A stretch of 64,000 nt of DNA from an uncultured Hyphomonas sp. (GCA_964350465.1 CAYGKE010000004.1:20616-84615); one strand, 5' to 3'. Positions 2,133-29,779 are shown, counted from the first letter of the stretch. Numbers and translations are program-made. Notes: a model not told the origin generated them from the sequence alone.

Positions 2133-2148
2133 AAAAGATATATCATTT
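2133..2148 (+). promoter_or_regulatory. Operator A copy 1 (AAAAGATATATCATTT)
   Basis: 16-mer with palindromic GATATATC core in a divergent intergenic region; identical copies at 24171 and 29209. Confidence 0.75.
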
Positions 2149-2179
2149 GCAAAATATAGCCATAGGGGAGTTTACGGAT

Positions 2180-2494
2180 ATGAGCACCAAAATCGTCGCA
2201 CTGTTCAACTTGAAGCCAGGTATCAGCGTTTCAGACTATGAGGCCTGGGCCCAGAGCAAAGACATTCCGACCGTCAACGGATTGCAATCGGTTGATTCAT
2301 TTGAAGTCTATAAATCGGTTGGCCTGCTCGGTACCGACGACAAGCCGCCCTATGCCTATATCGAGACCATAGACGTCAATGACATGGAAAAGTTTGGCGG
2401 CGAGGTGTCGACTGACACCATGCAGTCCATTGCCGGCGAATTTCAGGCGATGGCCGATGACCTGGTCTTCATTCTGACGGACAAGCTGGGCTGA
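2180..2494 (+). CDS. HapK/REDY-like dimeric alpha+beta barrel protein
   Basis: IVALFNLKPGISVSDYEAWA...DIPTVNGL..VDSFEV, PYAYIE; ATG 2180 after GGGGAG preferred over the track's TTG 2147. Confidence 0.7.
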   Translation: MSTKIVALFNLKPGISVSDYEAWAQSKDIPTVNGLQSVDSFEVYKSVGLLGTDDKPPYAYIETIDVNDMEKFGGEVSTDTMQSIAGEFQAMADDLVFILTDKLG

Positions 2495-2499
2495 GCGCG

Positions 2500-3336
2500 A
2501 TGGGACGGTTTTCAGGAAAAACGGCCGTGATCACCGGCTCAGGCCGTCGCAAGGGCCTTGGGGAAGCGATTGCCAAACGCCTCGCCGAGGATGGCGCAAA
2601 TATTGTCATCTCGGATATTGGTGCACCGCGTGATGACGCCACTGGCGCGGAACACATTGGCTCCACCGATGAGATGGAAGCCATCGCTGCCGACATGCGC
2701 GCGCTTGGCGTCGATGCTTCGACCTGCGTGTGCGATGTTCGCTCACTCGAAGACGTGCGCGCGCTTGCGAAACATGCTGTCGACACGCATGGCAGTCTCG
2801 ATATCTGGGTCAATAATGCCGGCATCGGCTATATCATGAAGCCGCTGCTGGAGGTGACCGAAGACGACTGGCGCGCTGTGATCGATGTCAATCTGACGGG
2901 TGCCTTTTTCGGCGTGAAGGCGGCTGCCGAAGTTATGACCAAGCAAGGCAAGGGCGGGCGGATTATTAATGTCGCATCGCAGGCGGCCAAGTCGGGCTTC
3001 CCGCATGCGCAAGCCTATACGTCCTCGAAACATGGACTCGTTGGTCTTGTGCGCTCAGCCGCAGTTGAACTGGGCGGCGACAAGATCACGGTCAACAATG
3101 TTTGCCCGAACCATGTCACGACGGGGCTTGGCGCCTGGCAGAATGAGTATTTCGCAAAAGTCGTTGGCGCAGATTCGGTTGATGATTATCTCAAGGCCAT
3201 GGCGGCGCGGATTCCATTGGGACGACCCGGATTGCCTGAGGACACTGCGAATGCGGTGGCCTGGCTATGCTCTGATGAGGCCAACTATATTACTGCTGAG
3301 AGCATGAATGTCTCAGGCGGCGAGGAACCGCACTGA
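2500..3336 (+). CDS. SDR family oxidoreductase
   Basis: TGSGRRKGLG, NNAG, YTSSK catalytic motif. Confidence 0.9.
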   Translation: MGRFSGKTAVITGSGRRKGLGEAIAKRLAEDGANIVISDIGAPRDDATGAEHIGSTDEMEAIAADMRALGVDASTCVCDVRSLEDVRALAKHAVDTHGSLDIWVNNAGIGYIMKPLLEVTEDDWRAVIDVNLTGAFFGVKAAAEVMTKQGKGGRIINVASQAAKSGFPHAQAYTSSKHGLVGLVRSAAVELGGDKITVNNVCPNHVTTGLGAWQNEYFAKVVGADSVDDYLKAMAARIPLGRPGLPEDTANAVAWLCSDEANYITAESMNVSGGEEPH

Positions 3337-4235
3337 TGGTGGTCCCTCCCGATCCTGCCCCGAAGGACTTCACTTGGCCGGGCGGCGCCAAACTTGCGCT
3401 GTCAATTGTCGTGAATGTCGAGGAAGGCGCTGAGAAGCGCGTTGATGAGGGCGACAAGAAGCCTGAACCGGTCGATGAGCTGAAAGCGGTGCCATCTGCG
3501 CCGATCCGCGTATTCTCGAATGAAAGCAACTACCAGTACGGTATCAATCGTGGCGCGCCGCGTGTCTTGAAGCTGCTCGACAAGGCGGGCGTGAACGCAA
3601 CCTGGACCGTCTGCGGGCAAGCGCTTGAAAAGGCACAATGGCTTGCCGATGCCTTGATGGCGCGCGGGGATGAACCGGCCGACCATGGCCATAAATGGGC
3701 CTTCACGGCCTTTATGGATGAAGACCGAGAGACGGCATTTATCGAGAAGAGCGCGGCCAGTATCGAGAAGACCTGCGGGCGTCGTCCGGCCGGTTGGCTG
3801 TCACGCTACCTCTATTCAGAAAATACCCGGCGCATTCTCAAGGCGCAGGGCTACACCTACCATATGGATGATTTTTCCGACGACTTTCCGTATTGGGATC
3901 AGGTCGACATGGGCAACGGAACGCGTGAGCCGATGGTGATCCTGCCTTATGCGATCGATAGCAATGACATGAAATTCTGGATTGATCCGTCTTTCACGAC
4001 GCAGATGTGGATCGACTATGCCAAGCAGACTTTTGATTGGCTGCTCAATGAGTCTGAAACTGAAGGCGCGCGGATGATGAGCCTTGGGCTGCATTTGCGT
4101 ATCATCGGTCGACCCGGCCGTATCGGCGCGCTGGAAGAAGTGCTGGATTATGTGACCAGTAAATCCGGGGTCTGGATCGCCACACGTGAACAAATCGCGC
4201 AGCACTTTGCTGTGCACGTGAAGCCGGAGAGTTGA
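3336..4235 (+). CDS. PuuE/allantoinase-like CE4 (polysaccharide deacetylase fold) hydrolase
   Basis: WPGGAKLALSIVVNVEEG, DHGHKW, GLHLRIIGRPGR. Confidence 0.8.
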   Translation: MVVPPDPAPKDFTWPGGAKLALSIVVNVEEGAEKRVDEGDKKPEPVDELKAVPSAPIRVFSNESNYQYGINRGAPRVLKLLDKAGVNATWTVCGQALEKAQWLADALMARGDEPADHGHKWAFTAFMDEDRETAFIEKSAASIEKTCGRRPAGWLSRYLYSENTRRILKAQGYTYHMDDFSDDFPYWDQVDMGNGTREPMVILPYAIDSNDMKFWIDPSFTTQMWIDYAKQTFDWLLNESETEGARMMSLGLHLRIIGRPGRIGALEEVLDYVTSKSGVWIATREQIAQHFAVHVKPES

Positions 4236-4236
4236 G

Positions 4237-4863
4237 ATGACACGGAAACTATTGGCAGTGCTTAGTGTGCTAGCTCTATCTGGCTGCATCGTCATCGAGT
4301 CAGATGAAGTTCATTCTGAAGTCGCGCGAGAGATTGAGCGCGAGATCGTTGCCGACAAAGCCGAGGCTGCTGTCGCCAACCCGCTTGATCTACGCCGCAC
4401 AACTTTGGTCGTTCGGGACATTGAGAGGTCGCTCGCTCTATATCGCGACGCGCTGGGCATGACCGTCGAGTATGATCAGGAATTGACCTCACCGGGCCTT
4501 AGCATGCGATATGGCGCCGATGGTGCGAACCGCTCGCGCCTCGTGCTCTTGAAAGCCAATGACAGCTTCATCGGTATGCTTGGTCTGTGGCAGTTCCTTG
4601 ATCAGACCGAGAAAGATCTGGCTGGACCTGACGCCGCCGATTTCACGCCCGGAGAGATCGTTCTCCTGTTCAATTCCAAGACCCTGGATGAGACTTTTCC
4701 TGCCGCCGCCGCAGCGCCGGGTGTGCAAATAGTCGGCGAACCGCATGAGCGGCGTTATCCCTCACCGGCCGGCGACATTGTCGTGATGGTGTCTATGCTG
4801 GTCGATAATGACGGGCATACGATCGAGCTCAACCAGATTATTTCCGATCCGCGTAATCCATGA
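4237..4863 (+). CDS. VOC/glyoxalase-fold lipoprotein
   Basis: Lipobox LALSG-C; TLVVRDIERSLALYRDALG and DNDGHTIEL VOC motifs. Confidence 0.75.
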   Translation: MTRKLLAVLSVLALSGCIVIESDEVHSEVAREIEREIVADKAEAAVANPLDLRRTTLVVRDIERSLALYRDALGMTVEYDQELTSPGLSMRYGADGANRSRLVLLKANDSFIGMLGLWQFLDQTEKDLAGPDAADFTPGEIVLLFNSKTLDETFPAAAAAPGVQIVGEPHERRYPSPAGDIVVMVSMLVDNDGHTIELNQIISDPRNP

Positions 4864-5420
4864 CACGGCTATCTCCCTTGTCCCTTGATCAGGTCGATCC
4901 GGAAACACGGTCCATGATCGAGAATGCAGAGAATCTGATGGGGTTTGTCCCGAATGATGCGCTGGTCATGGCCCGCCACCCGGCTTTGCTCAAAGCCATG
5001 TGGGGCTTAGTTGCAGCGATCTATGGACCGGGCGATGTGGACAATGGCTTGAAGCGATTGGTCGGAGAAGCAGCAAGCAAAGCTGCCGGTTGTTTCTATT
5101 GCTCGGCCCATGCCGCTCATGGCGCGCGGGAACATGGTGTCTCAGCTGAGAAGATCGAAGCGGTCTGGTCGTTTGAGGATAGCCCGCTTTTCACTGAGGC
5201 TGAACGTGCAGCTATTGCACTGGCCATGAAGGCGGGTGCCATACCTAATGAAACCGAAGACACGGATTTTGATCGCTTGAAACAGAATTTCAGCGATCGT
5301 CAGATCACAGAAATCGTTGCCGTCATTGCCATGTTTGGCTTCCTCAATCGATGGAACACAACGCTGGGCACAGCGCTGGAGCCGATGCCGATGGCTTCAG
5401 TGGAAGGACTTGCCTCATGA
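4860..5420 (+). CDS. AhpD-like / carboxymuconolactone decarboxylase family protein
   Basis: GCFYCSAH (CxxCxxH), FTEAERAAI, FLNRWN. Confidence 0.8.
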   Translation: MTRLSPLSLDQVDPETRSMIENAENLMGFVPNDALVMARHPALLKAMWGLVAAIYGPGDVDNGLKRLVGEAASKAAGCFYCSAHAAHGAREHGVSAEKIEAVWSFEDSPLFTEAERAAIALAMKAGAIPNETEDTDFDRLKQNFSDRQITEIVAVIAMFGFLNRWNTTLGTALEPMPMASVEGLAS

Positions 5421-6520
5421 TCAGGACGTTACGGCTGCTTGCTATTCTTGGCGGTCTTGGCCTCGCGTCTTGTGTAGCCCCAGCACCGCAGACCCCCGCC
5501 ATTGCACAGACTACGGCAGCGCCCTGGTCGCCGCCGCCGATGGTTAAGCCGGAACCGATCACGCGCCAGCCCTGGCAGGAGGCGGTCGTCAGTGTGCGTG
5601 ATATCGACACGACAGCCCGGTTTTTTCTTGAAGTAGCCGGTTACGAGGTCCGCACACGCGGACCGGTCGATTCCGCCATGCTTGAACATTGGGGGCTGCC
5701 CGCTGAAGCGAGTGCTGAGGCACTCGTTCTTGGTCGTCCTGGGCACGATCAGGGTCAGGTCAGGCTGGTTGAATTCAAAGACGCCGGCCGGCAAGTGCCG
5801 ATGCGTCCGGGCGCGCGTGCTTGGGATACGGGTTGTTACTTCTCACTCATGGTGCGCGCCAAAGATCTTGAGGCACGTTACGAAGAAGCGCTCGCGCTGG
5901 GCTGGTGGACCGAAACGCCCATTGCCGATCTTGAGTTTGGCACGTCAGTCCTGAAGATCGTCATCTTTCGCGGCCCTGACGGATTGCAGGTCCAAGCCTA
6001 TGAGCGTATCAGTCCGGAACTGCCCGAGGCGATTGGGCCATTTGAGCGTATGACGCAGCCTTTCAACGTGATGCAAATGGTGGCTGACCGCGACAAGACG
6101 CGAGAGCTTCTGGTCGGTGTCCTAGGTTTCGATACGTTCTGGTTCGGCCCGCCCTATGTTGATGAAGAGCCGACCTATATGCCAATTGGCATTCCTTATA
6201 ATCTGACGACCAGTGTGCATTATGGCGCCGGCATCTTCTATCCGCAGCCAGGTGAGTTCGGCCGGATGGAAAGTATTGAAATCATGGATCTGGAAGGCCG
6301 TGATTATTCCGACCGCTGCGCCGCGCCGAATTACGGCATCTTGGCGGTCCGTTTCCCTGTCGAGGATCTCGAAACGGCTCGTACCATGATTGAAGCGCGC
6401 GGCTGGCCGATTGCACGGGCAAAGACACAAACTGATATTGCTGGACTGGGCGAGGTTGAGATATTGGGCATCGATACGCCAGACGGTGCGATGGTAGATT
6501 TCTATGCGCTGGTTCCCTGA
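5417..6520 (+). CDS. Tandem-VOC-domain lipoprotein
   Basis: ATG 5417 overlaps the previous stop (ATGA); lipobox LAS-C; repeated VOC strands (SVRDIDTTARFF, GPDGL, TPDGAMVDF). Confidence 0.7.
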   Translation: MIRTLRLLAILGGLGLASCVAPAPQTPAIAQTTAAPWSPPPMVKPEPITRQPWQEAVVSVRDIDTTARFFLEVAGYEVRTRGPVDSAMLEHWGLPAEASAEALVLGRPGHDQGQVRLVEFKDAGRQVPMRPGARAWDTGCYFSLMVRAKDLEARYEEALALGWWTETPIADLEFGTSVLKIVIFRGPDGLQVQAYERISPELPEAIGPFERMTQPFNVMQMVADRDKTRELLVGVLGFDTFWFGPPYVDEEPTYMPIGIPYNLTTSVHYGAGIFYPQPGEFGRMESIEIMDLEGRDYSDRCAAPNYGILAVRFPVEDLETARTMIEARGWPIARAKTQTDIAGLGEVEILGIDTPDGAMVDFYALVP

Positions 6521-6535
6521 GGGCGCGGATTCCTG

Positions 6536-6564
6536 TTGACCTCTGCTTATACGCGCCCTAATTT
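6536..6564 (+). promoter_or_regulatory. Putative sigma70 promoter of the CitE-MaoC operon
   Basis: TTGACC-17 nt-TAATTT; the -10 overlaps operator B. Confidence 0.55.
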
Positions 6565-6576
6565 GTCCGGACAAAT
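6561..6576. promoter_or_regulatory. Operator B copy 1 (ATTTGTCCGGACAAAT, perfect palindrome)
   Basis: Perfect 16-bp palindrome 11 nt upstream of ATG 6588; resembles HutC-subfamily GntR boxes. Confidence 0.75.
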
Positions 6577-6587
6577 CCGGATGAGTC

Positions 6588-7406: not shown

Positions 7407-7419
7407 AGAGGCAATAGAC

Positions 7420-7941: not shown

Positions 7942-7950
7942 GAGGCCATC

Positions 7951-12285: not shown

Positions 12286-12302
12286 GGGCAGGCTCCTGTT
12301 TT

Positions 12303-14284: not shown

Positions 14285-14346
14285 TTATTCCTGTCTTGGG
14301 TTAGTTTTCGGGTTCACTCAAGCTTGTAACTTATGCTAGCACAATA

Positions 14347-14362
14347 AAATGTCCGGACAAAT
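14347..14362. promoter_or_regulatory. Operator B copy 2 (AAATGTCCGGACAAAT)
   Basis: 14/16 match to copy 1, in the divergent gap between the CoA-transferase/GntR#1 operon and the prpD operon; next to a TAAAAT -10-like hexamer. Confidence 0.7.
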
Positions 14363-20467: not shown

Positions 20468-21888
20468 ATGGCATCCTCGGAAAAGGCCTGTATCGCGGCC
20501 GGTGCGCCAGTATTAGCGATCAATGCCTTGCGCCTCAAGAAGCGCTGGAAACCGGCTGGACCCATCCGGCTGCCGCCCATGCCGGAGAGTTTGAAACTGT
20601 GCTTCTCGGCTTCATGAAACTGCGCCGTCAGTGCCGCATCGTTGAGGCTGACACCGCCGGCATCTATCTGGCGACCGATCGCCTCGGCCTCCTCAAGTGT
20701 GCCAGCAAATACGGCTGCCGAAAGACCATATTCGCTGTCATTGGCTTTGGTGATGGCCTCTTCAATTGTATCGAAAACCAATACAGGCATGATCGGGCCA
20801 AAGGTTTCCTCGGTCACGACTTTCATCTCATGCGTGGCATCGGCAATCACCGTTGGGCGTAGCCAGAGGCCACCGCCATGCGTTTCGATCTCGCCGCCGG
20901 TCAGGATGCGAGCGTCTTTTTCTTTCGCATCCTCAATGTGCGCGCGCAGAATGTCGGCCTGTTTGTCAAAGATGATCGGCCCGATCTCGCCTTGCGAAAT
21001 GTCAGGCCAGTTCAGCCGCACAGCCTTGGCTTTTTGGGTCAGGCGTTCGACAAAAGCTGCGTAGAGTGGCTTCGCCACATAGATGCGCTCAATCGATTGG
21101 CAGGCTTGGCCAGTGGACAGCACGGACCCGCGCAAAGCGGCATCCGTTGCCAAGTCAAGATTGGCGCTTTCCGTAACGATCAGCGGGTCTTTGCCACCAA
21201 GCTCCAGAAAAGCCGGGATCATGTTGGCGGCGGCCCCCGCAGCAACTTTGCGGCCCGTTGCGACCGAACCGGTAAAACAGATCGCATCAACAGCATTGAT
21301 CAGCGCCGCGCCTGTCTCTCCGTCCCCCTGAACGAAGGTCAGAACATCACTCATGCCGGCCTGCTCAATCGCGGTAAGGAGTGGGTCAACAAAGCGAGGT
21401 GTCACTTCCGAAGGTTTGATCATCACTGTACAACCCGCGAGCAGAGCTGGGATCGTATCGATCATGCTCAGCGTCAGTGGAAAATTCCATGGTGAGATGA
21501 CGCCGACCAGTTCATAGGGAACAAATTGCGGCGCATGGCGGATGGCCGGGTTTGATCGTCCCTCGGTCCAGCCAGTTGGCATTAGGCCCGGTGCCTGCGC
21601 CAGCCAGCCATGAATCGCGCCCGCAGCGCCTTTCACTTCCATAAGCGCGATGCGGCGGCGGCCCGTATCAATTTCCAGGGCTGCCGCAATCGAATGGGCA
21701 TGTTGATCAATGGCACGTGCGAGATTGGCGAGCTTGTTGCCGCGCTGCTCAAGCGTCATGGCCCTCCAACCCGGTGCCGACCCGCGCAAATGGTTCGCGG
21801 TCTCGTTGATCTCTTCCAGCCTTGCCGCTGCAAAGGAGAAATCCTGCTCGCCTGTGCGGGGATTGCGCGCCTGTAGCTGTCTGGACAT
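20464..21888 (-). CDS. Aldehyde dehydrogenase
   Basis: ISPWNFP, FTGSVATG, LELGGKDP, GQACQS, EETFGP. Confidence 0.92.
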   Translation of the reverse strand: MSRQLQARNPRTGEQDFSFAAARLEEINETANHLRGSAPGWRAMTLEQRGNKLANLARAIDQHAHSIAAALEIDTGRRRIALMEVKGAAGAIHGWLAQAPGLMPTGWTEGRSNPAIRHAPQFVPYELVGVISPWNFPLTLSMIDTIPALLAGCTVMIKPSEVTPRFVDPLLTAIEQAGMSDVLTFVQGDGETGAALINAVDAICFTGSVATGRKVAAGAAANMIPAFLELGGKDPLIVTESANLDLATDAALRGSVLSTGQACQSIERIYVAKPLYAAFVERLTQKAKAVRLNWPDISQGEIGPIIFDKQADILRAHIEDAKEKDARILTGGEIETHGGGLWLRPTVIADATHEMKVVTEETFGPIMPVLVFDTIEEAITKANDSEYGLSAAVFAGTLEEAEAIGRQIDAGGVSLNDAALTAQFHEAEKHSFKLSGMGGSRMGPAGFQRFLRRKALIANTGAPAAIQAFSEDAM

Positions 21889-21891
21889 GTT

Positions 21892-23478
21892 TCAGCCAAG
21901 CCCCAGCGCGCCAGGGTTTACAATGCCCTTGTCATCGACAGCCTGCTTGATCGCTTCGAGTAGTTTCCACGTCGCTTCGTCCCGGCCTTCGCGATAGGGG
22001 TAGGTTCGTCCAATCTGGAAATGCGCCGCGCCATGCTCCGTAAAGACGTCAAGGACGGCTTGTCGCGCTTTCTGAACGACCGCCGTGGCTTCCGGATTGG
22101 CTTCAAACCGTGTGACGCGTTTGGCGACATCCGGTTCAACTGTTTGCTCGTGTATGTCCCAGATCTCTTCCGGCCAGATAAATACCGGCTCGATCAGATA
22201 GCCGGTCGTGCCGAGACTGGTGATGAGATACCCGGTCAGGATGTCATGCATGTCCAACTCATCGCGCATGGCGTCGAAGCGGGTTTCGATGTCCCGCCAG
22301 GTCGCCTCGCCCTCCGAAACTGGAACAATGCCATGGATCGGGACCCAGCGCTCGCCTTGTGGCCCGAGGATGTTGTTCAATGGACCAAACGGATTGGCGC
22401 GTATGATGGTTGGTATAGAGTTTTCGATCTCCTTGCCGCCAAGATCCTTGGCGATCTTTTTCAGAACCGCCATATCTTCTTTGACGCCGGTCTTTGATCG
22501 CCCCTCGACCGAAACGTGCAGTGAATAGTCGACCTTATCCATGAAGCCGCGCCCGGCCATGGCAACTTTGGCCCCGGCTTTCAGGCCCTTCAGAATTGAG
22601 CCTTGCCCCTTGATGACATTGGTCAGGGACTTCGCGTCGGCCAGGATGCTGGCGCGTGCCATGCGCACCTTGGTCAGGTTGGGGTCAAAGCCGTAGATTT
22701 CGCAGGCAATATCCTCGCGCATCATCCTAGCCTGTGCCTGTGCGCAGGCGTCGCGTGTCGCAAACTCAAAGCTCGCATGTTCGTCTGCTTGCGGTAGAGG
22801 GATCAGGCGGAACGTGATCTCTGCCTTGTAGCCAAGCGTCCCGGCATCACCGCAGAATAGACCTGTCAGGTCGGGTCCGTAATGCCGCCAGAAAGGCTTG
22901 CCATTTTTGGTGCCGCCTGTGCCGGTCCGCACCAGTGTGCCATCCGCCAGAATGACCGTGACAGAAAGGACGCTATCGCCTGTCGTGCCGTATTTGCCAG
23001 CGCCGAAGAAGGCGTTGTTCTGTGACAGGCCGCCACCAATCGTTGAGGAGATGCCGGAAAGCGGCCCCCAGAAAGGTGTCCGCACGCCCTGCTTCTTCAG
23101 CGCCTCATAGAGTTGCGCCCAGGTCACGCCGGCTTGAACCGAGACATACATGTCGTCTGTATTGATCTCGATAATCTGGTCGAGTTTCGACATATCGAGA
23201 ATGCCGACATTGTCGCGGTCGGGCGTATAGCCTTTGGTATAGGACATGCCGCCACCGCGCGGGTTGAGCGATATTCCGCGCTCATAGGCGGCACACACGA
23301 CCGCCTGCAAATCCTCTAGGTTGGACGGCGACGCAACAAAGGCCGCAGTGTCACCCTTGTGCCAGATGTCCTGGCTCATCAGCTCGCGTGTGGCAGTATC
23401 CTCCTGCAGACCGTTTTCGCCCAGTTTCTGCTTCAGAACGCCGGGCAGGTCGCTGATGGATTTGATATCGTCAGGCAT
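21892..23478 (-). CDS. FAD-binding oxidoreductase (VAO/PCMH, D-lactate dehydrogenase-like)
   Basis: PRGGGMSY, VQAGVTW, STIGG, DAGTLG, HFQIGR, DDKGIVNPG. Confidence 0.85.
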   Translation of the reverse strand: MPDDIKSISDLPGVLKQKLGENGLQEDTATRELMSQDIWHKGDTAAFVASPSNLEDLQAVVCAAYERGISLNPRGGGMSYTKGYTPDRDNVGILDMSKLDQIIEINTDDMYVSVQAGVTWAQLYEALKKQGVRTPFWGPLSGISSTIGGGLSQNNAFFGAGKYGTTGDSVLSVTVILADGTLVRTGTGGTKNGKPFWRHYGPDLTGLFCGDAGTLGYKAEITFRLIPLPQADEHASFEFATRDACAQAQARMMREDIACEIYGFDPNLTKVRMARASILADAKSLTNVIKGQGSILKGLKAGAKVAMAGRGFMDKVDYSLHVSVEGRSKTGVKEDMAVLKKIAKDLGGKEIENSIPTIIRANPFGPLNNILGPQGERWVPIHGIVPVSEGEATWRDIETRFDAMRDELDMHDILTGYLITSLGTTGYLIEPVFIWPEEIWDIHEQTVEPDVAKRVTRFEANPEATAVVQKARQAVLDVFTEHGAAHFQIGRTYPYREGRDEATWKLLEAIKQAVDDKGIVNPGALGLG

Positions 23479-23492
23479 AGTTTGAGAGTCTC

Positions 23493-24155
23493 CTAGAATG
23501 AGGTCGGCGTCCAGAGGCCGAAGAAGGCGGCGAGCAGCAAGAGCAGCCAGATGGCCATTACCAGCGGCCGGGCGCGCTTGAGAGTGAGGGCAAGACTGGC
23601 TTCGGCAGCTTCGGCATTCTTACCCGATAGTCCCATCAGTGCAGGACCAAGCGGGCGCAATACAACGCGAATGAACAGACCGAGGCCAATACAACCCGCA
23701 AGCAATAGCATCTTGATGGCCAGAAAGGCGGGGATGTTTGTTTCGCCGAACAGGACCCAGATTGCTGTGGCGGTTAGACCAATGATCAGGAGCCAACGGA
23801 TGGCGAGATCCAGATTCTTCATCCAGCCCGGCGCGCCGCCATGGCTGAGATGTAATTTCCAGGCGAGAGCCAGCCAGACCACCGCGGCAAGGCAGATGGC
23901 GATGGTGACTGGCCAACCCAGACTCATCCATGACTTGCTCTCGGCAAGCACAAGACCTGTTGGCAATGCCAGGATCAGCGCGCTCCGCGGTGCCATATCG
24001 ACATCACCGACAATCTTGGCCGCCATCATACGCCGATCGGCACTCACGCCAGGCCGGGTCAGGAAATGACTTGTATAGAATGCGCCCAGGTCGCCGCCCA
24101 GCCAGTAGACAAAGACGAGAATATGCAAGAGTGCAAAAAGCGCCTGATCGGTCAT
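23493..24155 (-). CDS. Integral membrane protein of unknown function (about 5-6 TM)
   Basis: HILVFVYWLGGDLG first helix, multiple hydrophobic segments; GGAGG RBS. Confidence 0.75.
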   Translation of the reverse strand: MTDQALFALLHILVFVYWLGGDLGAFYTSHFLTRPGVSADRRMMAAKIVGDVDMAPRSALILALPTGLVLAESKSWMSLGWPVTIAICLAAVVWLALAWKLHLSHGGAPGWMKNLDLAIRWLLIIGLTATAIWVLFGETNIPAFLAIKMLLLAGCIGLGLFIRVVLRPLGPALMGLSGKNAEAAEASLALTLKRARPLVMAIWLLLLLAAFFGLWTPTSF

Positions 24156-24163
24156 GCGATCCT

Positions 24164-24193
24164 CCGATTTAAAAGATATATCATTTAAATCGG
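24164..24193. promoter_or_regulatory. Operator A copy 2 inside a 30-bp palindrome (CCGATTTAAAAGATATATCATTTAAATCGG)
   Basis: 14 of 15 pairs complementary; lies between the GntR#2 stop and the RBS of the membrane protein/FAD oxidoreductase/ALDH/crotonase operon. Confidence 0.8.
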
Positions 24194-24212
24194 TTTAGGC
24201 GAGACCCTTGCG

Positions 24213-25010
24213 CTATTTTTCGGTCTTCCAGTCTGTTTGAGCGGCATCATTACGGGTCAGGCGCATGTGATATTCGAAACGATCAGCGCGGTAATGGGCC
24301 GTAATGTCCTGAACCGGTCGTCCACTCTTGTCGCTCATGACGCGGTGGATGCGTAGCAAAGGTGACCCGGGCGCAACGCCGAGCGTTGCTGCAACCGCTG
24401 GTTCCGCTGCTGCCGCTGAAATGCTTTGTTCGGCTTCGACAGGTCCATGACCTGCCTTTTCCAGAAGCTTGATCAAGGACTGGCTTGTCAGCTCGGACTC
24501 CTCATAACCTTGAGCGACATCATAAGGTATATAGGTTATAAGATGAGAGAAGGGTTCGCCGTCCATCGACCTTACGCGAACGATCCTCTGCACACTTTCC
24601 CCGGCTTTCAGCTTCAGCGCGCCGCGAATGGCAGGACTGGCTGTGCCCACTGTGCAATCGAGCAGTTTAACGCTGGTCTCAACACCCATGCGCGTCAGTC
24701 CGTCGATCATTGTCTCAAAGCTGCCTTTGATCATCGACCCGTTGGCATCATAGGTGACGACGGTACCAATGCCCCGTTGACGTCTGACCAGACCGGCGAC
24801 AGCGAGTTCGTTCATCGCGCGCTTTACAGTGATCCGCGAAACGCCCAGCATTTGCGTTACGTCCTGCTCGGCTGGCAGATGATCACCATGCGCGAGGCCA
24901 CCATCGAGGATTTTCTTGCGCAGAATATCATAGATCTGCTGGTATAGCGGCGTTCCTGATTTCTCGTCGATCTGGCTGGGTTTGAGTTTCAGCATGGGAG
25001 TCCGGGCCAT
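24213..25010 (-). CDS. GntR family regulator (HutC subfamily, UTRA domain) #2
   Basis: PLYQQI, LPAEQDV, VSRITVKRAM; C-terminal UTRA ending YRADRFEY. Confidence 0.9.
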   Translation of the reverse strand: MARTPMLKLKPSQIDEKSGTPLYQQIYDILRKKILDGGLAHGDHLPAEQDVTQMLGVSRITVKRAMNELAVAGLVRRQRGIGTVVTYDANGSMIKGSFETMIDGLTRMGVETSVKLLDCTVGTASPAIRGALKLKAGESVQRIVRVRSMDGEPFSHLITYIPYDVAQGYEESELTSQSLIKLLEKAGHGPVEAEQSISAAAAEPAVAATLGVAPGSPLLRIHRVMSDKSGRPVQDITAHYRADRFEYHMRLTRNDAAQTDWKTEK

Positions 25011-25086
25011 TGTGTTTGTCTTGCCAGTTCAGTTGATTCAGAGTGCAAGGACACAGATGCCTGCAATCTAGGCGCGAGTATAGAGG

Positions 25087-25509
25087 CTATTCTCCTAGCC
25101 CCTTGGAAAGATCATTCGTTGGCCCGCCGGCGGCGCGGTGAGCGACAGAGTCAGGGCTACCCCAGATCTTGCCGCCAATATACTGGCCGATCGAGTTGGA
25201 AAACTCCTTGTATTCAATCGATTCATACATGCCGCAGGTCAGGTAGGGGTCGCCATTCATCAGCGCCTGTGCATCGCTAATATCGTCGGCGAGGACTAGA
25301 AAAACCGAACCAACCAGCGCTTCTCCGCCCGGCTCTCGGATCGGGCCGGCCGTAATATAGCGCGTCCAGTTGTCCTCGACATGCTGCAAATGCCCGGCAA
25401 GATGATCAAGGCGCGGTTTGGCACTGTCAGGACCGTCCCGGCAAATCACGAGATAGCATTTTTGCGGGAGCCGAGGCACTTCAGGGGGCTGCTTGGGAAA
25501 GGTCGGCAT
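25087..25509 (-). CDS. YciI family protein
   Basis: CRDGPD..PRLDHLAGHL, AGP, GSVFLV, DPY. Confidence 0.78.
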   Translation of the reverse strand: MPTFPKQPPEVPRLPQKCYLVICRDGPDSAKPRLDHLAGHLQHVEDNWTRYITAGPIREPGGEALVGSVFLVLADDISDAQALMNGDPYLTCGMYESIEYKEFSNSIGQYIGGKIWGSPDSVAHRAAGGPTNDLSKGLGE

Positions 25510-25518
25510 GGTCGTCTC

Positions 25519-26634
25519 CTATTTCAAAACGCCGCTGGCAACGAGGCGATCTATGACAGCTTGCTGCTGGGCGATAGCGTCAGCGCGTTCAATCATCTGA
25601 GCATCAGGTGTGCGATTGGCCGGCGCATGATTGGCTTGCCCGTATCCGCTTGCAAAAGCCGCATTAGGAAGGCGCGACAGCGTATTGGTCATGCCTGTCT
25701 TACGCCGGGTTTCCCGCAGCGCGCCAATGTCCAATACGGCATTTGCGTTCAGGGTTTCGCCCTGGTTCGCCTCTGCGAGACTGCGGCCATACCAGTCGAG
25801 CACGATTGACATGCCGTCAGTTGATGCGCTGGGCACTGGCGTACCGATTATCTCGGCGCTGTTGGCGGAAACGACGTAGGCAATATTCTCGATTGCACGT
25901 GCCTTCTTTGTAATGTGCTTTGGTGTCAGCGTGGGCGCGCCGACTTCGCTGGTTGGGTGGCAGAATATCTCCGCGCCCTTAAAGGCCTGCATCCGGGCAA
26001 TCTCTGGATAGAGAATTTCTTCACTGGCAATCGATCCAAGCACGCCAATTTCCGTGTGTGCGACCGGGAAAACGGCATCCTCGCCATAGATATCCAGATA
26101 CTTGTCCCAGACGTCATAAGGGCTTGGTGTGTACAGTGAAATCATCCTGCGATAGCGCAGCACAATATCGCCATTAGGGCCGTAGATCACGTTCGATTGG
26201 AAATAGAGATCCGGAAAGTTCGGATCAGTCTCGTAATGGTTGGAGCAAAGATAGATGCCAAAAGTCTGGGCGAGGCTTGCTAGCTTATCTGGAAAAGCGC
26301 CTTCCATGGGAATAGCGGCCTTATCCTGCCATTCTTCGCGCGTTTCCCCGAGTGGGAACCCAGTCATCCAGTATTCAGGCAAGACAACCAGTTTTACATC
26401 ATAGCCATTGAAGCCTTTCAGAAAGCCCCGGGCTGAGCCGATTTGGCCCCGGACACGGCCAATTGCCAGCTCTATTCGTGCGTGTGCGTCTTCAATCGTG
26501 CTGTCCTGATTGACCGCATCGCAAACAGTTTGAAGGGCAAGAGCGGTATAGCGCATTGATGGGTTTCCTTGGGCGAGAACGGGAGCAGCTAAAGTCGCCG
26601 CTCCGGCACTGAGAAGAAGTTCACGGCGGGTCAT
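25519..26634 (-). CDS. Nitrilase/carbon-nitrogen hydrolase-fold protein, Tat signal, non-canonical triad
   Basis: MTRRELLL..VLA-Q Tat signal; LVVLPEY; YRR in place of YRK; IASEEILYPE in place of ICYD..FPE. Confidence 0.8.
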   Translation of the reverse strand: MTRRELLLSAGAATLAAPVLAQGNPSMRYTALALQTVCDAVNQDSTIEDAHARIELAIGRVRGQIGSARGFLKGFNGYDVKLVVLPEYWMTGFPLGETREEWQDKAAIPMEGAFPDKLASLAQTFGIYLCSNHYETDPNFPDLYFQSNVIYGPNGDIVLRYRRMISLYTPSPYDVWDKYLDIYGEDAVFPVAHTEIGVLGSIASEEILYPEIARMQAFKGAEIFCHPTSEVGAPTLTPKHITKKARAIENIAYVVSANSAEIIGTPVPSASTDGMSIVLDWYGRSLAEANQGETLNANAVLDIGALRETRRKTGMTNTLSRLPNAAFASGYGQANHAPANRTPDAQMIERADAIAQQQAVIDRLVASGVLK

Positions 26635-27533
26635 GAGGCGTCCTGAAATGTGCGTATACTATCAGCGGCGGTCATTAGCTTTAGGCCTGTGCTTGTAGCG
26701 AGTGCATTGAGGATTTTACGTACGGCATGTATTCGAAACGGCTGCCCAAGCACATAGGGGGTCATCGTGAAGGCGAGGGCGGCGGCGCCCTCTTTATCGT
26801 GCAGGTCGACGCTATACTGCGCCGCTTCGATAATCTGCTCAGCCCAATCGTCTTCGGATTGCGAGCGATCAAGCAAGAGTTTGAAATCGCCAAGCTCGCC
26901 ATAGTGGGGCAGCGCGGTGATCGAACCGTTTGCTGTTCTCATAGCAAGCGGACGCTGGTCGGCCTCCCAGTCGAGTACAGTATTGAAACCTGCCTCAGTG
27001 AGGAGATCGAGCGTGCGATAGCTCTCGTTTCGCGCCGGGCTCATCCAGGTCGTGGCATCTGGGAACACTGATCGCGCATCGGCGATGAGCGCTCGCTCTT
27101 CAGCCTCGCTCAGGCCATCATGATGAATATGTGCGGTAGATACACCGTGGGCCGCGACCTCGTGCCCGCCCGCTTTAATGGCATCGATGAGTGGCGGATA
27201 GCGTTTTGCAATCTCGGCATCTACCGCGAACGTGGCCGTCACGCCCGTTGCCGAAAATTCGCGCATTAGGCGAAAAATGCCGATACGGTTGCCGTAATCC
27301 CGCGTCGTGAAATGGCGCAGATCCGGATAGGGCGTCTTCATCGCGCCGGGGTGTTTGAACGGCACGGAAGGCGGGTTCAGAGGAAAAAATTCGACTGGCA
27401 CAATGATTGTGGCGATCGCTTTGGTCCCATCTTTCAAGTAAACCGGCGCGCGTCTGTCGGCAGGCTCCCAGCCATAGTGCGGGTTATCCATGCCAGGCTT
27501 ACGGTGTGGGTAAATCAGATAGTCATCAGGCAT
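26631..27533 (-). CDS. PuuE-like CE4 hydrolase paralogue (conserved His apparently replaced)
   Basis: RDYGNRIGIFRL, EVAAHG, MTPYVLGQPFR; ATG 27533 follows the upstream stop, preferred over the track's 27668. Confidence 0.8.
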   Translation of the reverse strand: MPDDYLIYPHRKPGMDNPHYGWEPADRRAPVYLKDGTKAIATIIVPVEFFPLNPPSVPFKHPGAMKTPYPDLRHFTTRDYGNRIGIFRLMREFSATGVTATFAVDAEIAKRYPPLIDAIKAGGHEVAAHGVSTAHIHHDGLSEAEERALIADARSVFPDATTWMSPARNESYRTLDLLTEAGFNTVLDWEADQRPLAMRTANGSITALPHYGELGDFKLLLDRSQSEDDWAEQIIEAAQYSVDLHDKEGAAALAFTMTPYVLGQPFRIHAVRKILNALATSTGLKLMTAADSIRTFQDAS

Positions 27534-27537
27534 TTTG

Positions 27538-28482
27538 CTAGGAGATTGGGACAAAGCCGGTTCCTCCCGTCGCGACACCTCGGGCTGCGACATCCGCCAA
27601 TGTCTGATCCCAATAGTTCTCGCAGTAGAATTCAGCGATCTCTGCGCCCGTTGTGAACCAGACATCATCGCGGTGGCTGCAAATATGCCTCAGCGCCTCT
27701 TCAAACACGCGCAGGCGATGCGGTTGGCTGACCAGATAGGCGTGCAGTGGGATACACATCACGGTTCCGGACTGTTCGCCTTCCTTCAGCAACTGATCGA
27801 AATGCTTGATCAGCAGATCTGTGTAGCGCTGCGGGCTCCAACCCTGGACCGAATATGTGATGACATCATTCACTTCCAGCGAGTAGGGCATCGACACCAG
27901 CTTTCCGGTCTTGGTCTTGATCGGCTGGGGCTGATCATCCTGGAACAGATCGCACGTATACCAGAAATCATGCTCGGCGATCAGGTCCAGCGTATGCTCG
28001 GTATGCGTCAGCGCCGGGGCGAGATAGCCGCGGATACGTTTGCCGGTTGCACGTTCAACTGTTTCGATACTGTCTGTTAGTACCGCCACTTCCTGCTCTG
28101 GCGACATGCCATACGAATAACGCGTGTTATAAATGCCGTGGGAGAAGAACTCCCAGTTTCTTTCGTTCACGGCTTCGATGATTTCCGGGTGGTGATCAAC
28201 AAGCCCCACCGAGAGCGAGATACTCCCGCGTAGATCATACTTGTCGAACAGATCCATCAGCCGCCAATGACCGACCGTATTGCCCCAGGTGCGCTGTGAA
28301 TAGGCGACGACATCCGGGTTGCCACGTGGCCAGCCGGGACGCTTGTTATTATGTGGCGGCTGAAATTCGTAATACTCTATGTTTGGTGCGATCCAGAAGG
28401 CGAGCTTCTTGCCGCCCGGCCAGACGATCTTGGGCCGTCCTTCATAGGGCCAATAATCATAGAGGTTGGGATCAGCGTGCAT
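27538..28482 (-). CDS. PuuE-like CE4 hydrolase
   Basis: WPGGKKLAFWIAPNIEYYE, EFFSHG, IPLHAYLVSQPHR. Confidence 0.85.
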   Translation of the reverse strand: MHADPNLYDYWPYEGRPKIVWPGGKKLAFWIAPNIEYYEFQPPHNNKRPGWPRGNPDVVAYSQRTWGNTVGHWRLMDLFDKYDLRGSISLSVGLVDHHPEIIEAVNERNWEFFSHGIYNTRYSYGMSPEQEVAVLTDSIETVERATGKRIRGYLAPALTHTEHTLDLIAEHDFWYTCDLFQDDQPQPIKTKTGKLVSMPYSLEVNDVITYSVQGWSPQRYTDLLIKHFDQLLKEGEQSGTVMCIPLHAYLVSQPHRLRVFEEALRHICSHRDDVWFTTGAEIAEFYCENYWDQTLADVAARGVATGGTGFVPIS

Positions 28483-29177
28483 CAGCCCTGATACCTCGCA
28501 ATCGCCTCATGTACCTCGCTGACCGGCACAACGTCGGCATATTTGATCAGCAAGTCGGTCAGGTTCGCAAAGTGATAGCTCTCATGCTTGTCGGCGACGC
28601 ATTCCTCCGGGACGATGGTGCGGTAGCCATAACTTAAACTATCAACCGCAGTAGCGCGCACGCATCCTGACGTTGAGCCGCCGGTAACAACAACCGTGTC
28701 GACCTTGTGCCATGTCAGGAAACTGTTGAGCGGCGTTTCAAAGAAAGCGGACGGCATACGTTTGGTGTAGACCGCATCCACAGCCGGATCGATGGTCAAA
28801 CGATCATCAAACGCGGTGCGCTCTGAGCCATATTTGATATTCTGCAGGCTGTCCGGCGTATCCGTTCGCGTGCCCCAGACGCCGGCATCAGCGGCATTGT
28901 CCATATAGGCAACATGCGTCCAGATCACTGGCAGACCTTTTGAACGTGCGGCGTTTGAGATGGCATCAATATGCTCCATCTGACGAGGGTCCGTGATGTA
29001 GGCGGTCTTGTAGAGATCAGGCCGTGTGTACGCTTTTTGCGGGTCAACATTCACGATAGCGAGCTTGTCGCCAAACCCGAACCGCGCGCGCATAGGGTTG
29101 GAGCGAACCTCTTCGAATATCTCACGCGCTGTTTTGTCTGAGGTTACCATGGTCGGTTGGGACATATCGTGGGTCAT
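28482..29177 (-). CDS. Isochorismatase/cysteine hydrolase (maleamate amidohydrolase / N-carbamoylsarcosine amidase-like)
   Basis: Asp-Lys-Cys triad: VNVDPQ, TKRMPSAFF, STSGCVRATAVD. Confidence 0.88.
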   Translation of the reverse strand: MTHDMSQPTMVTSDKTAREIFEEVRSNPMRARFGFGDKLAIVNVDPQKAYTRPDLYKTAYITDPRQMEHIDAISNAARSKGLPVIWTHVAYMDNAADAGVWGTRTDTPDSLQNIKYGSERTAFDDRLTIDPAVDAVYTKRMPSAFFETPLNSFLTWHKVDTVVVTGGSTSGCVRATAVDSLSYGYRTIVPEECVADKHESYHFANLTDLLIKYADVVPVSEVHEAIARYQG

Positions 29178-29208
29178 AGGAATTCCGCTTGCATTCTATC
29201 TCTCATTC

Positions 29209-29224
29209 AAATGATATATCTTTT
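29209..29224 (-). promoter_or_regulatory. Operator A copy 3 (AAATGATATATCTTTT on +)
   Basis: Exact reverse complement of copies 1 and 2, in a divergent intergenic region. Confidence 0.75.
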
Positions 29225-29253
29225 TGCGCAAGTCTAGCCAATTGGAGGAAGTT

Positions 29254-29688
29254 ATGAAGAGTTTTATTCTGGGTGCGATACTTGGCTTGGCAGGCGGGGT
29301 TGGTATTGCTGCTTGCGTTGGCGTTCAGCCGCAGATCGCGCAAGGACAAGAAACTGCGCCAGAACCACCAGCTTACATGATCGTGCTTGGTGAAGTGCAT
29401 GACCGCCCGGCCTTTATGGAAGGGTACGCAGCCAAGTTACCGCCCATCTACGAGCAATATGGGGGTCACTATATCGCAATTGGGGGAGGTCCAGGCATCG
29501 AAGTCCTCGAGGGTGACTATGCCCCGCCGAGCTATGTGATCAGTAAATGGGAGAAGGCGCAGGACGCGCGGGATTTCTGGAACAGCCCGGAATATGACGC
29601 GCTCAGGCGCGCACGCATCAACAATAATTGGGGCACATTCGACGTCCTATTGGTGAACGGTCTCCCAAACCCTGCTGCCGCTGAATGA
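29254..29688 (+). CDS. DUF1330 family protein with signal/lipoprotein peptide
   Basis: GGAGG-ATG 29254; GIAA-C; AYMIV, YGGHYI, VLEG, FWNSPEY..LR. Confidence 0.75.
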   Translation: MKSFILGAILGLAGGVGIAACVGVQPQIAQGQETAPEPPAYMIVLGEVHDRPAFMEGYAAKLPPIYEQYGGHYIAIGGGPGIEVLEGDYAPPSYVISKWEKAQDARDFWNSPEYDALRRARINNNWGTFDVLLVNGLPNPAAAE

Positions 29689-29732
29689 AGCGTGCTGCCT
29701 CAGGTGCGGCAGATTTACAACATTGCCGCATT

Positions 29733-29748
29733 AAATGACCGGACAAAG
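29733..29748. promoter_or_regulatory. Operator B copy 3 (AAATGACCGGACAAAG)
   Basis: One substitution in the TGTCCGGACA core; abuts the -35 of the receptor promoter. Confidence 0.6.
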
Positions 29749-29777
29749 TTGGACATCTCGCGCAAAAGGTATATCAT
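29749..29777 (+). promoter_or_regulatory. Putative sigma70 promoter of the TonB-dependent receptor
   Basis: TTGGAC-17 nt-TATCAT. Confidence 0.55.
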
Positions 29778-29779
29778 TT
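29764..29779 (+). promoter_or_regulatory. Operator A copy 4 (AAAAGGTATATCATTT)
   Basis: 15/16 match; covers the -10 hexamer. Confidence 0.68.

Follow-up and report, generated by a model that had tools for sequence, protein, structure and literature searches.

A conserved 16-base palindrome as the likely operator of a HutC-subfamily regulator in a nitrogen-compound gene cluster of marine Hyphomonadaceae-like bacteria

Operator A, a palindrome with the consensus AAAWGATATATCWTTT, is best explained as the DNA-binding site of GntR#2, a dimeric regulator of the GntR/HutC subfamily, a reading to which we give a probability of roughly 0.8 on the strength of comparative sequence evidence. The 16-base palindrome is a real and strongly conserved predicted binding site that is computationally well supported as a variant of the HutC-type operator, and through it GntR#2 most likely switches a large nitrogen-compound breakdown cluster in marine Hyphomonadaceae-like bacteria. 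The copy found 3' of the GntR#2 gene is the only one that lies within a longer covarying hairpin, which suggests an added role for this copy at the level of RNA.

The window, that is the whole 64,000 nt stretch from an uncultured Hyphomonas sp. that was analysed, contains three exact copies of AAAAGATATATCATTT and a fourth copy that matches at 15 of 16 positions (Table 1). These copies had been reported in a first-pass annotation of the same DNA and their coordinates are confirmed, with four copies observed where shuffled sequences give an expectation of 0.01 at two or fewer mismatches. No fifth site is found in the 64-kb window even when three mismatches are allowed, the core GATATATC is restricted to the three exact positions (0.40 expected in the window), and a weight matrix derived from orthologous sites retrieves the four sites alone at 14 bits or more. 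Chance or a repeat remnant as the origin of the copies was ruled out by the shuffles and by the observation that similarity stops at the edges of the 16-mer. Two copies had been placed in divergent gaps, which is where sites 1 and 3 are found; the further statement that all copies are intergenic and directly upstream of operon starts holds for their non-coding position (four out of four) but not for site 2, which is intercistronic and without an obvious operon start.

Table 1. Predicted operator sites and the genes around them, in positions of the window
Feature	Position	Strand	Description
SAM-methyltransferase gene	818-2056	-	Divergent partner of the HapK-like gene at site 1
Operator A site 1	2133-2148	+	Exact copy in the methyltransferase/HapK divergent gap; ends 31 nt before the HapK-like ATG (2180)
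Site 1 operon	2180..6520	+	HapK-like protein, short-chain dehydrogenase, PuuE-like hydrolase, glyoxalase-fold protein, CMD-family protein, glyoxalase-fold protein
Operator B, further copies	6561-6576; 14347-14362		
GntR#1	12303..13019	-	Second HutC-subfamily regulator; found together with operator B rather than with operator A
Genes 3' of site 2	19688..24155	-	220-aa membrane protein, FAD-linked oxidase, aldehyde dehydrogenase, enoyl-CoA hydratase
Extended 30-bp palindrome	24164..24193	-	Around site 2; predicted to fold as a hairpin once transcribed in the sense (-) direction
Operator A site 2	24171-24186	+	Exact copy within the 57 bp that separate the GntR#2 stop codon (24213) from the ATG at 24155
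GntR#2	24213..25010	-	GntR/HutC-subfamily regulator; winged helix-turn-helix and UTRA domain; proposed operator A binder
Operon under proposed site 3 control	25087..29177	-	Isochorismatase-family amidohydrolase, two PuuE-like deacetylase-fold hydrolases, CN hydrolase, YCII protein
Operator A site 3	29209-29224	-	Exact copy at the centre of the 76 bp that separate the divergent isochorismatase-family and DUF1330 genes
DUF1330 gene	29254..29688	+	Divergent partner at site 3
Operator B	29733-29747	-	TTTGTCCGGTCATTT; second conserved box, proposed GntR#1 site
Operator A site 4	29764-29779		AAAAGGTATATCATTT; 60 nt 5' of the TonB-dependent receptor ATG (29840)
TonB-dependent receptor gene	29840..32002	+	Preceded by operator B, then operator A

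Gene order is conserved in related loci for the site 1 operon, for the genes 3' of site 2, the first of which encodes a membrane protein that has no Pfam match, and for the operon under proposed site 3 control, which probably reads on into GntR#2. Site 3 is 31 nt from the isochorismatase-family ATG (29177) and 29 nt from the DUF1330 ATG (29254).

Phylogenetic footprinting, one of the checks proposed for the motif, was carried out on 57 species-level loci from Henriciella, Hyphomonas, Hirschia and Parvularcula in which the GntR#2 orthologues are 52-76% identical. The consensus occurs at matching intergenic positions, with at least one site in 56 of the 57 loci, and there are 159 matches of at least 20 bits in 972 kb of these loci against 0.1 in shuffles; the matrix was trained on loci that were later counted, and the shuffle expectation is independent of that training. 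A site follows GntR#2 in 49 of the related loci, lies in the DUF1330/isochorismatase gap in 36, precedes the receptor gene in about 30 (25 + 5, several with the G variant of site 4) and precedes GntR#2 itself in 22 of the 57, counts which are not independent events as the loci are phylogenetically related. Almost all matches, both in the 64-kb window and in the 972 kb of related loci, fall at the conserved intergenic positions of this cluster. One locus (L049), with a GntR#2 homologue at 61% identity, has only a weak site (14.7 bits). Culturable carriers of the cluster include Hirschia maritima, Hirschia litorea, Hyphomonas polymorpha and Parvularcula lutaonensis. Independent support comes from orthologues of site 1 on 23 metagenome contigs that were recovered via HapK, where the distance 5' of HapK is unchanged.

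When the orthologous sites are aligned the information content is about 2 bits throughout the 16-mer and about 0 bits immediately outside it, and the matrix is symmetric with both halves conserved to an equal degree. Of 163 sites, 98% have the anchors G-4 and C+4, which are separated by six bases at HutC spacing on either side of the dyad; A occupies position -3 in 86% and G does so in 13%, position -5 is W (A/T) in the matrix, and the centre is always TATA, read as A-T-A|T-A-T.

GntR#2 has an N-terminal GntR-type winged helix-turn-helix (PF00392, E 1.1e-19, residues 22-85) and a C-terminal UTRA effector domain (PF07702, E 1.8e-35, residues 108-246), and it aligns over its full length with 2ra5 and with DasR and NagR/YvoA (E 1e-22 for the last two), with NCBIfam scores far below every equivalog cut-off. 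The gene neighbourhood is lost around its distant homologues (43-50% identity), nine of which (L068, L070-L072, L074-L076, L079 and L080) have TAATGATATATCATTA-like palindromes in their own promoter region, at a distance of 96-154 nt 5' of the matched segment of each gene. These nine loci share no element but the regulator gene, and because the palindrome is kept there without the neighbourhood, GntR#2 is likely to be the protein that binds operator A. The first-pass annotation had favoured the same protein, and comparative genomics now lends that proposal strong support, through the distant homologues and through co-occurrence of regulator and motif.

A second conserved box, operator B (TTTGTCCGGACAAA), accompanies GntR#1. 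In the GntR#1-centred loci L108-L112, each of 12.7 kb, operator B is found beside GntR#1 and 5' of an HpcH-type lyase gene, and there are zero operator A sites of at least 20 bits, the sole weak match being one of 15.4 bits in L112. On the basis of this co-localisation operator A would be assigned to GntR#2 and operator B to GntR#1. Both boxes are present at the uptake gene, with their centres 31.5 bp apart. GntR#1 and its box may control the lower, CoA-dependent half of the pathway, with the receptor promoter common to both regulators; two-regulator catabolic islands with shared transporter promoters likewise have a pair of paralogous regulators that use separate boxes and divide the upper from the lower pathway.

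The consensus operator of the HutC subfamily is NyGTMTAKACNy (Rigali 2002, as quoted in PMC4494728), and operator A is like it in being a palindrome with AT-rich flanks and an equally spaced outer G and C (GT and AC 4 nt apart). Operator A also shares with the HutC-type sites described in that survey a frequent location in divergent gaps and beside the regulator gene. Unlike the consensus, all six inner positions are different (GATATATC against GTMTAKAC), and neither T at -3/A at +3 nor the MTAK centre is characteristic of the 163 sites. The earlier remark that the core departs from the HutC-type box is therefore right for the six inner positions, but the G-N6-C anchor geometry is retained; as this family geometry (G-4/C+4) is kept, operator A is taken as a variant of the HutC box and not as a different kind of site. 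The accessible site tables of the 2015 GntR survey (PMC4494728), one of them truncated, do not contain GATATATC, and among the papers searched none ties it to a GntR regulator.

The closest comparison is with NagR (YvoA) and DasR on their dre operators (PDB 4WWC, 4ZS8), proteins with the same architecture as GntR#2. Like operator A, dre is a 16-bp dyad with the G-4/C+4 anchor and six bases between, and it is read by a dimer, as is proposed for GntR#2. The two differ in that dre (AGTGGTCTAGACCACT) has GG at -5/-4 and T at -3, whereas operator A has A/T at -5, A at -3 and an ATAT centre; the effector of NagR and DasR is GlcNAc-6-P/GlcN-6-P. GntR#2 has Gln at the Arg38 position, and its identity to these regulators is low. 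In NagR Arg48 reads G-4 and Arg38 reads G-5, with the half-sites six nucleotides apart (PMC4333415), and across HutC regulators an Arg at the Arg38 position favours G/C at -5/+5 and disfavours A/T (PMC4494728). Arg59 and Gly80 of GntR#2, the equivalents of NagR Arg48 and Gly69, are conserved throughout its clade; the equivalent of Arg38 is Gln49, with Gln, Glu or Phe across the clade (Glu and Phe in more distant members). By analogy with the NagR-DNA structure each GntR#2 monomer would read one half-site, Arg59 would contact G at -4 (C at +4), Gln49 in place of Arg38 would face the A/T base at -5, and the Gly80 wing would sit in the minor groove of the A-tract. A rare GGTATACC variant was also considered as GT-N2-AC with FadR-like spacing, and this register was rejected because it sets the invariant G opposite Gln and a variable base opposite the conserved Arg, and breaks the HutC spacing.

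Lying 15-60 nt from start codons and over likely -10/start regions, operator A would cover the promoters of the TonB-dependent receptor, DUF1330/isochorismatase-family, methyltransferase/HapK and membrane-protein/FAD-oxidase genes. Unliganded GntR#2 most likely represses all of these, together with its own gene via the site-3 operon, and would leave the DNA once a pathway metabolite occupies the UTRA domain. NagR and DasR are repressors of catabolic and transport operons that act from promoter sites, and the same role is proposed for GntR#2. The sites themselves, their conserved footprint, their co-occurrence with the GntR#2 clade and the fit of anchor geometry and contact residues are shown, while we infer the binding, its repressing as opposed to activating effect, the effector and where the promoters lie. 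A sigma-70 consensus scan gave a candidate promoter at site 4, where the site overlaps a promoter-like TGGACA-16-TATCAT, and none at sites 1-3. The conserved boxes TGGAC (isochorismatase side), GGGCTAT (HapK side) and CTCGCC (site 2) do not fit a single -35 model. One RNA-like public run (X5), from a strain 95-99% identical, has 58% of words present; it assembled as short adapter-bounded contigs and was uninformative on transcription starts.

It is very unlikely that operator A is bound by some other regulator, be it GntR#1 or a protein that acts globally on AT-rich boxes, as Fur does. In favour of this reading, the cluster encodes two HutC regulators, a TonB-dependent receptor with siderophore/haem/B12-receptor-like domains is among the operator A targets, and the AATGATATATCATT at the centre is reminiscent of AATGATAATCATT, the core of the classical Fur box. 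The Fur box, however, is a 19-bp odd-centred AT-rich inverted repeat 5' of iron-uptake genes, whereas operator A is an even-centred (8+8) 16-mer that lacks this form, and its targets are amidohydrolase and CoA-pathway operons plus the promoters of GntR homologues. No operator A site is found at the Fe-superoxide dismutase gene (37314-37958) or elsewhere in the remaining 34 kb of the window. Against GntR#1 stand the loci centred on it, with operator B and no operator A site of at least 20 bits within 12.7 kb. Operator A moreover tracks GntR#2 homologues into unrelated neighbourhoods that have neither GntR#1 nor iron genes.

That the 16-mer is instead a promoter element, a -10 region with AT-rich flanks, seems very unlikely, even though TATATC on both strands of GATATATC fits the Caulobacter-type -10 pattern TANAWC, the sites are close to start codons, site 4 provides the -10 of its promoter-like match and TGGAC is conserved about 6-7 nt 5' of the isochorismatase-side site. 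The equal conservation of the two halves, the fact that sites face either way with respect to the genes, the presence of this palindrome 100-150 nt 5' of distant GntR homologues and the lack of a consistent -35 box at fixed spacing at sites 1-3 all argue against it. The operator and -10 readings are compatible, as the operators of repressors usually overlap the -10. It would be extremely improbable for the four copies to act mainly as RNA hairpins, that is as terminators or stability elements, rather than as DNA sites: site 2 is indeed in a stably folding, covarying hairpin, but the flanks of sites 1, 3 and 4 and their orthologues pair no better than background (about 40%), the 16-mer is conserved as sequence and not through compensatory change, its stem of 6-7 A/U base pairs is weak, two sites are in divergent gaps 5' of both genes, and there is no Rfam match around site 2.

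With operator A retained as a DNA site for GntR#2, the copy at site 2 has features of its own. The 30-bp near-perfect palindrome described in the first-pass annotation just 3' of GntR#2 was recovered, with 28 of 30 bases (93%) complementary between its 15-nt arms, and the 3' arm of the hairpin runs directly up to GGAGG, the ribosome-binding site from which the next gene would be translated. The 86-nt segment that contains it has a predicted fold of -26.3 kcal/mol (z -3.3), and the arms covary across species; the arm extension is absent from the other classes of operator A site. The flanks were considered as extra half-sites in the sense used in PMC4494728, a possibility that was rejected because the arm sequences are entirely different between clades yet remain complementary. 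There is no terminator-like match on the minus strand at 24164-24193, where GGAGG and not a U-tract comes after the stem, and covariance models from Rfam gave no match at E up to 1 on either strand of 23900-24500. In lying between a stop codon and the next ribosome-binding site, and in its compensatory changes, the stem-loop is like intrinsic terminators and hairpins that sequester ribosome-binding sites; unlike intrinsic terminators, in which a U-tract comes after a G+C-rich stem, it is without a U-tract on the sense strand, and its upper stem is the operator itself. No family is known whose conserved RNA hairpin has an operator at its apex. A dual use of the site-2 copy is an unlikely proposal, in which the DNA operator would, as RNA, be a cis-acting hairpin that insulates the GntR#2 transcript from the membrane-protein/oxidase operon, either by blocking read-through or by masking the ribosome-binding site GGAGG. 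The boldest form of this idea has GntR#2 itself bind the RNA hairpin, which is conceivable since HutC DNA-binding domains are reportedly able to bind RNA that mimics their operator, as in the DasR-aptamer structure.

None of the enzymes in the approximately 30 kb of the cluster reaches a curated family cut-off, and NCBIfam and PDB searches with them returned distant relatives only. They include three PuuE-like hydrolases, an enzyme like maleamate or N-carbamoylsarcosine amidases, PrpD-like proteins and an itaconate-type CoA module; our guess is that a cyclic imide or N-heterocycle feeds into branched C5 dicarboxylates. Operator A links these enzymes behind a TonB-dependent receptor and could help to identify the inducer, which would in turn point to the pathway substrate. 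A HutC-family clade found across marine Hyphomonadaceae and Parvularculaceae, in at least 57 species-level genomes, now has an operator and a regulon that can be tested. With Gln at the NagR Arg38 position and A/T at -5, it also offers a natural check on the rule that this residue determines the -5 base. If functional, the operator within a hairpin would be an unusual coupling of control at the DNA level with control at the RNA level.

In the window, operator A, a 16-mer palindrome, occurs as three exact matches to AAAAGATATATCATTT (sites 1 to 3) and one near-copy, AAAAGGTATATCATTT (site 4), which has a single mismatch, whilst shuffles that preserve dinucleotides lead one to expect 0.01 matches at ≤2 mismatches. 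No further copy is found in the window at 3 mismatches, and the 8-mer GATATATC occurs there only at the three exact sites. Since the window has 54-60% G+C, a 16-mer that is AT-only outside one G/C pair is conspicuous. The first-pass annotation had claimed these four copies and a near-perfect 30-bp palindrome around site 2; both are borne out, the palindrome running from 24164 to 24193 with 15-nt arms that are 93% complementary. A second palindrome, TATCATTTGCAAAATATA at 2141-2158, overlaps the right half of site 1 and shows no conservation across 23 orthologous HapK upstream regions.

Operator sites and genes of the catabolic island, in window coordinates
Feature	Position	Strand	Placement and remarks
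SAM-methyltransferase gene		-	one flank of site 1
Operator A, site 1	2133-2148	+	
HapK-like, short-chain dehydrogenase, PuuE-like hydrolase, glyoxalase-fold, CMD-family, glyoxalase-fold			operon, other flank of site 1
Operator B	6561-6576		upstream of HpcH-type lyase gene
HpcH/RipC-like lyase, MaoC hydratase, acyl-CoA dehydrogenase, two family III CoA-transferases			after HapK operon
GntR#1	12303-13019	-	HTH + UTRA; between site-1 and site-3 blocks
Acetyl-CoA hydrolase/transferase, two PrpD-like proteins, PaaK-like ligase, amidase			also between these blocks
Operator B	14347-14362		over first PrpD-like gene start
FAD-linked oxidase, aldehyde dehydrogenase, enoyl-CoA hydratase		-	after membrane protein gene
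220-aa polytopic membrane protein	23493-24155	-	after site 2
Operator A, site 2	24171-24186	+	
GntR#2	24213-25010	-	GntR HTH + UTRA; after YCII, before site 2
CN hydrolase, then YCII protein		-	between PuuE-like pair and GntR#2
Two PuuE-like deacetylase-fold proteins	26631-27668, 27538-28482	-	after amidohydrolase
Isochorismatase-family amidohydrolase	28482-29177	-	first gene from site 3
Operator A, site 3	29209-29224	-	
DUF1330 gene		+	from site 3, ahead of site 4
Operator B	29733-29747		receptor promoter
Operator A, site 4	29764-29779		
TonB-dependent receptor gene	29840-32002	+	after site 4

The first 36 kb of the window form one unit, a catabolic island, and a tally of positions 1-36000 gives three PuuE-like hydrolases, an isochorismatase-family amidase, a CN hydrolase, an amidase-signature enzyme, a PaaK-like ligase, two PrpD-like proteins, a RipC-like lyase and mesaconate-type CoA-transferases. 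The pathway is uncharacterised, as no island enzyme reaches an NCBIfam equivalog cut-off. The PuuE-like proteins, half-amide-type amidases and itaconate/mesaconate-type CoA module suggest that its substrate could be an N-heterocycle or cyclic imide, which may enter via the TonB-dependent receptor and whose ring opening and deamidation would yield a branched C5 dicarboxylate; cyclic imidases have been found among PuuE-like proteins (PMC11424739, PMC9304392). The nearest solved structures to the isochorismatase-family amidohydrolase are N-carbamoylsarcosine amidase and 4l07, an unnamed isochorismatase-family hydrolase, and the 220-aa membrane protein has no Pfam match. As listed, the two adjacent PuuE-like ORFs share 131 nt, the real start of the downstream gene being probably an internal codon, and this gene, with 46-76% identity, is far less conserved than its neighbour, with 75-92%.

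GntR#2 is one of two HutC-subfamily regulators in the window, and Henriciella, Hyphomonas, Hirschia and Parvularcula have many orthologues of it, which are 57-78% identical. An alignment-based scan with one genome per species gave 80 loci with 10-kb flanks, which were annotated with the window proteins as labels, and the order that is kept runs receptor, site, DUF1330, site, isochorismatase and on to YCII, in some a site, GntR#2, site, membrane protein and oxidase. Counted at ≤3 mismatches in species that are related, so that the numbers are not independent events, operator A lies between GntR#2 and the membrane protein gene in 49 loci, in the DUF1330/isochorismatase gap in 30 (+6), in the receptor upstream region in 25 (+ about 5) and immediately upstream of GntR#2 in 26, the latter in genomes with an extra divergent DUF1838 gene; in several species it is also found in the PrpD/acetyl-CoA-transferase, HapK and methyltransferase gaps. 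In locus L001 the DUF1838 gene (9046-9861, minus strand; equivalents in about 20 loci) is divergent from GntR#2 with operator A between them, and Henriciella-type genomes have a DUF3108-like gene after YCII; the window has neither gene, and there 76 bp, with no site in them, separate YCII from GntR#2.

Phylogenetic footprinting, a check that the first-pass annotation had suggested, gave an information content of ~2 bits, the maximum, over the 16 positions and about zero from the first flanking base, which is a classical footprint. A symmetrised matrix built on 163 sites reads A.96 A.96 A.88 W G.98 A.86 T1.0 A1.0 / T A T C W T T T and, trained and counted on the same loci, yields 159 matches of ≥20 bits in 972 kb (L001-L057) against 0.1 in shuffles, with at least one match in 56/57 loci. 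For site 1, metagenome contigs were scanned separately by way of HapK, and of the 27 loci obtained 23 have operator A ending 31 nt before the HapK ATG. More operator A sites lie about 1-2.2 kb into L084, L086, L088-L091, L094, L101 and L103, upstream of a distant membrane-protein paralogue (25-28% identity) and downstream of the methyltransferase gene, those in L101 and L103 with a 7-bp extended stem and one bulge.

That GntR#2 would be the binder of operator A, as had been thought likely, is supported by the arrangement of sites and genes. In almost every species operator A flanks the GntR#2 gene, be it upstream, downstream or both, and distant homologues keep the motif: where identity is down to 43-50% and the gene neighbourhood is lost (L068, L070-L072, L074-L076, L079 and L080, from Sneathiellales, Pelagibius, Rhodobacteraceae and other MAGs), TAATGATATATCATTA-like palindromes lie upstream of the homologue gene, 96-154 nt from its aligned part, the regulator being the sole element common to these loci. 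Furthermore GntR#1, the other HutC-subfamily regulator, is paired with its own conserved palindrome, operator B (TTTGTCCGGACAAA), of the form G-N6-C with canonical GT/AC. Operator B occupies the PrpD start/GntR#1-operon gap in about 33 loci and the receptor upstream region in about 14, and it tracks GntR#1 homologues into other lineages (L001-L067, L108-L112); in the five GntR#1-centred loci among these (L108-L112, 12.7 kb each; homologues 54-58% identical) it adjoins GntR#1 and lies upstream of the lyase gene, and operator A of ≥20 bits is found in 0/5, the sole weak match scoring 15.4 bits (L112). At the receptor promoter of the window operator B lies 17 nt upstream of operator A, their centres 31.5 bp apart. 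Binding of operator A by GntR#1 or by Fur is disfavoured by this pattern of co-localisation, as it is by the even-centred symmetry of the operator. With GntR#2 as the binder, the simplest model would assign operator A and GntR#2 to the upper, hydrolytic half of the pathway and operator B and GntR#1 to the lower, CoA-dependent half.

The alignment of GntR#2 with 2ra5, DasR and NagR/YvoA spans the whole protein. In NagR-DNA structures G-4 is read by Arg48 and G-5 by Arg38, the Gly69 wing enters the minor groove at -7, contacts to bases -3 to -1 are through the backbone only, and six nucleotides separate the recognition half-sites (PMC4333415). Counted from the dyad, operator A runs A-8 A-7 A-6 W-5 G-4 A-3 T-2 A-1 / T+1 ... 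C+4, and its invariant G/C pair coincides exactly with the NagR anchor positions; Arg59 and Gly80 of GntR#2, both invariant in the clade, occupy the Arg48 and Gly69 positions, and Gln49 occupies that of Arg38. According to a survey of ~390 HutC regulators, Arg at the Arg38 position strongly favours G/C at -5/+5 and shuns A/T (PMC4494728), so that A/T at -5 together with Gln is what this family rule predicts. The core had been described as unlike the usual GT-N-AC box; it does differ from the HutC consensus GTMTAKAC at all six inner bases, but the geometry is nonetheless that of HutC, which makes operator A a variant HutC operator, with this residue-to-base correspondence as a plausible explanation. 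No link between the operator A string and a GntR regulator was found in the searchable literature, and the string is absent from the site tables in the accessible part of the HutC survey (PMC4494728).

Among the site classes, only that downstream of GntR#2 has the longer inverted repeat, whose arms are wholly different between clades with complementarity kept (GATTT/AAATC, CTCCTCAC/GTGAGGAG, CCATTCCT/AGGAATGG, ACCGGC/GCCGG). In a gap-free alignment of 54 sequences double (compensatory) changes are seen in 7/7 arm pairs, and pairing holds in 71.7% of arm cells and in 79.2% of cells over the whole structure, the latter falling to 36-51% once the partner is offset by 1-3 columns. Covariation over the whole structure scores 0.363, whereas shuffles score 0.152 and 0/500 reach 0.363, RNAalifold independently recovers the stem, and at the other site classes the arms pair no more often than background, about 40%. 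G-U pairs in the five inner arm pairs are more frequent on the sense strand (27 vs 12 antisense), a weak pointer to RNA structure in the mRNA, and an 86-nt segment of the window folds at -26.3 kcal/mol (z -3.3). The 3' arm touches or contains the GGAGG of the membrane protein gene, the 5' arm in L031 and L038 is the anti-Shine-Dalgarno CCUCC, and the hairpin has neither a U-tract nor an Rfam match. Most likely it insulates the regulator transcript from the downstream operon, be it by stopping read-through, as a processing or stability boundary, or by masking the ribosome-binding site. A contig from X5, a public RNA-like run of a 95-99% identical strain, appears to lack 57 nt (24111-24167), a gap that ends 3 nt from site 2 and takes out the ribosome-binding site of the membrane protein gene along with its first 15 codons; it may be an assembly artefact, with only 20 letters supporting one side. 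Also near site 2, CTCGCC (minus strand, 24198-24203) is conserved in most species 11 nt upstream of the operator; it is non-coding, lies just past the stop codon of GntR#2 at 17 nt from TATATC, and is unlike any sigma-70 -35 box.

The distance from the end of operator A sites to start codons is 15-60 nt, too short for an upstream activator position, and most HutC members are repressors that are released by a pathway metabolite. Site 4 supplies the -10 of a TGGACA-16-TATCAT match, and GATATATC contains on either strand TATATC, a match to the Caulobacter-type -10 pattern TANAWC that would suit the two divergent gaps; a consensus scan located no promoters at sites 1-3. On these grounds we propose that GntR#2 would repress by promoter occlusion and, the YCII-GntR#2 gap of the window being free of sites, would regulate itself through the site-3 operon. 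A pure promoter element is compatible with an operator that overlaps the -10, but it leaves unexplained both the conservation of the dyad and the sites at the promoters of distant homologues, and a purely RNA-level role is excluded for sites 1, 3 and 4, which lack covariation.

The observation is thus confirmed, and its reading as an operator is, as far as comparative sequence analysis goes, supported and sharpened. Operator A appears to be a well-conserved variant HutC operator that is accompanied by a second regulator and box, and one copy of it lies in a covarying hairpin, the unexpected part of the operator A system.
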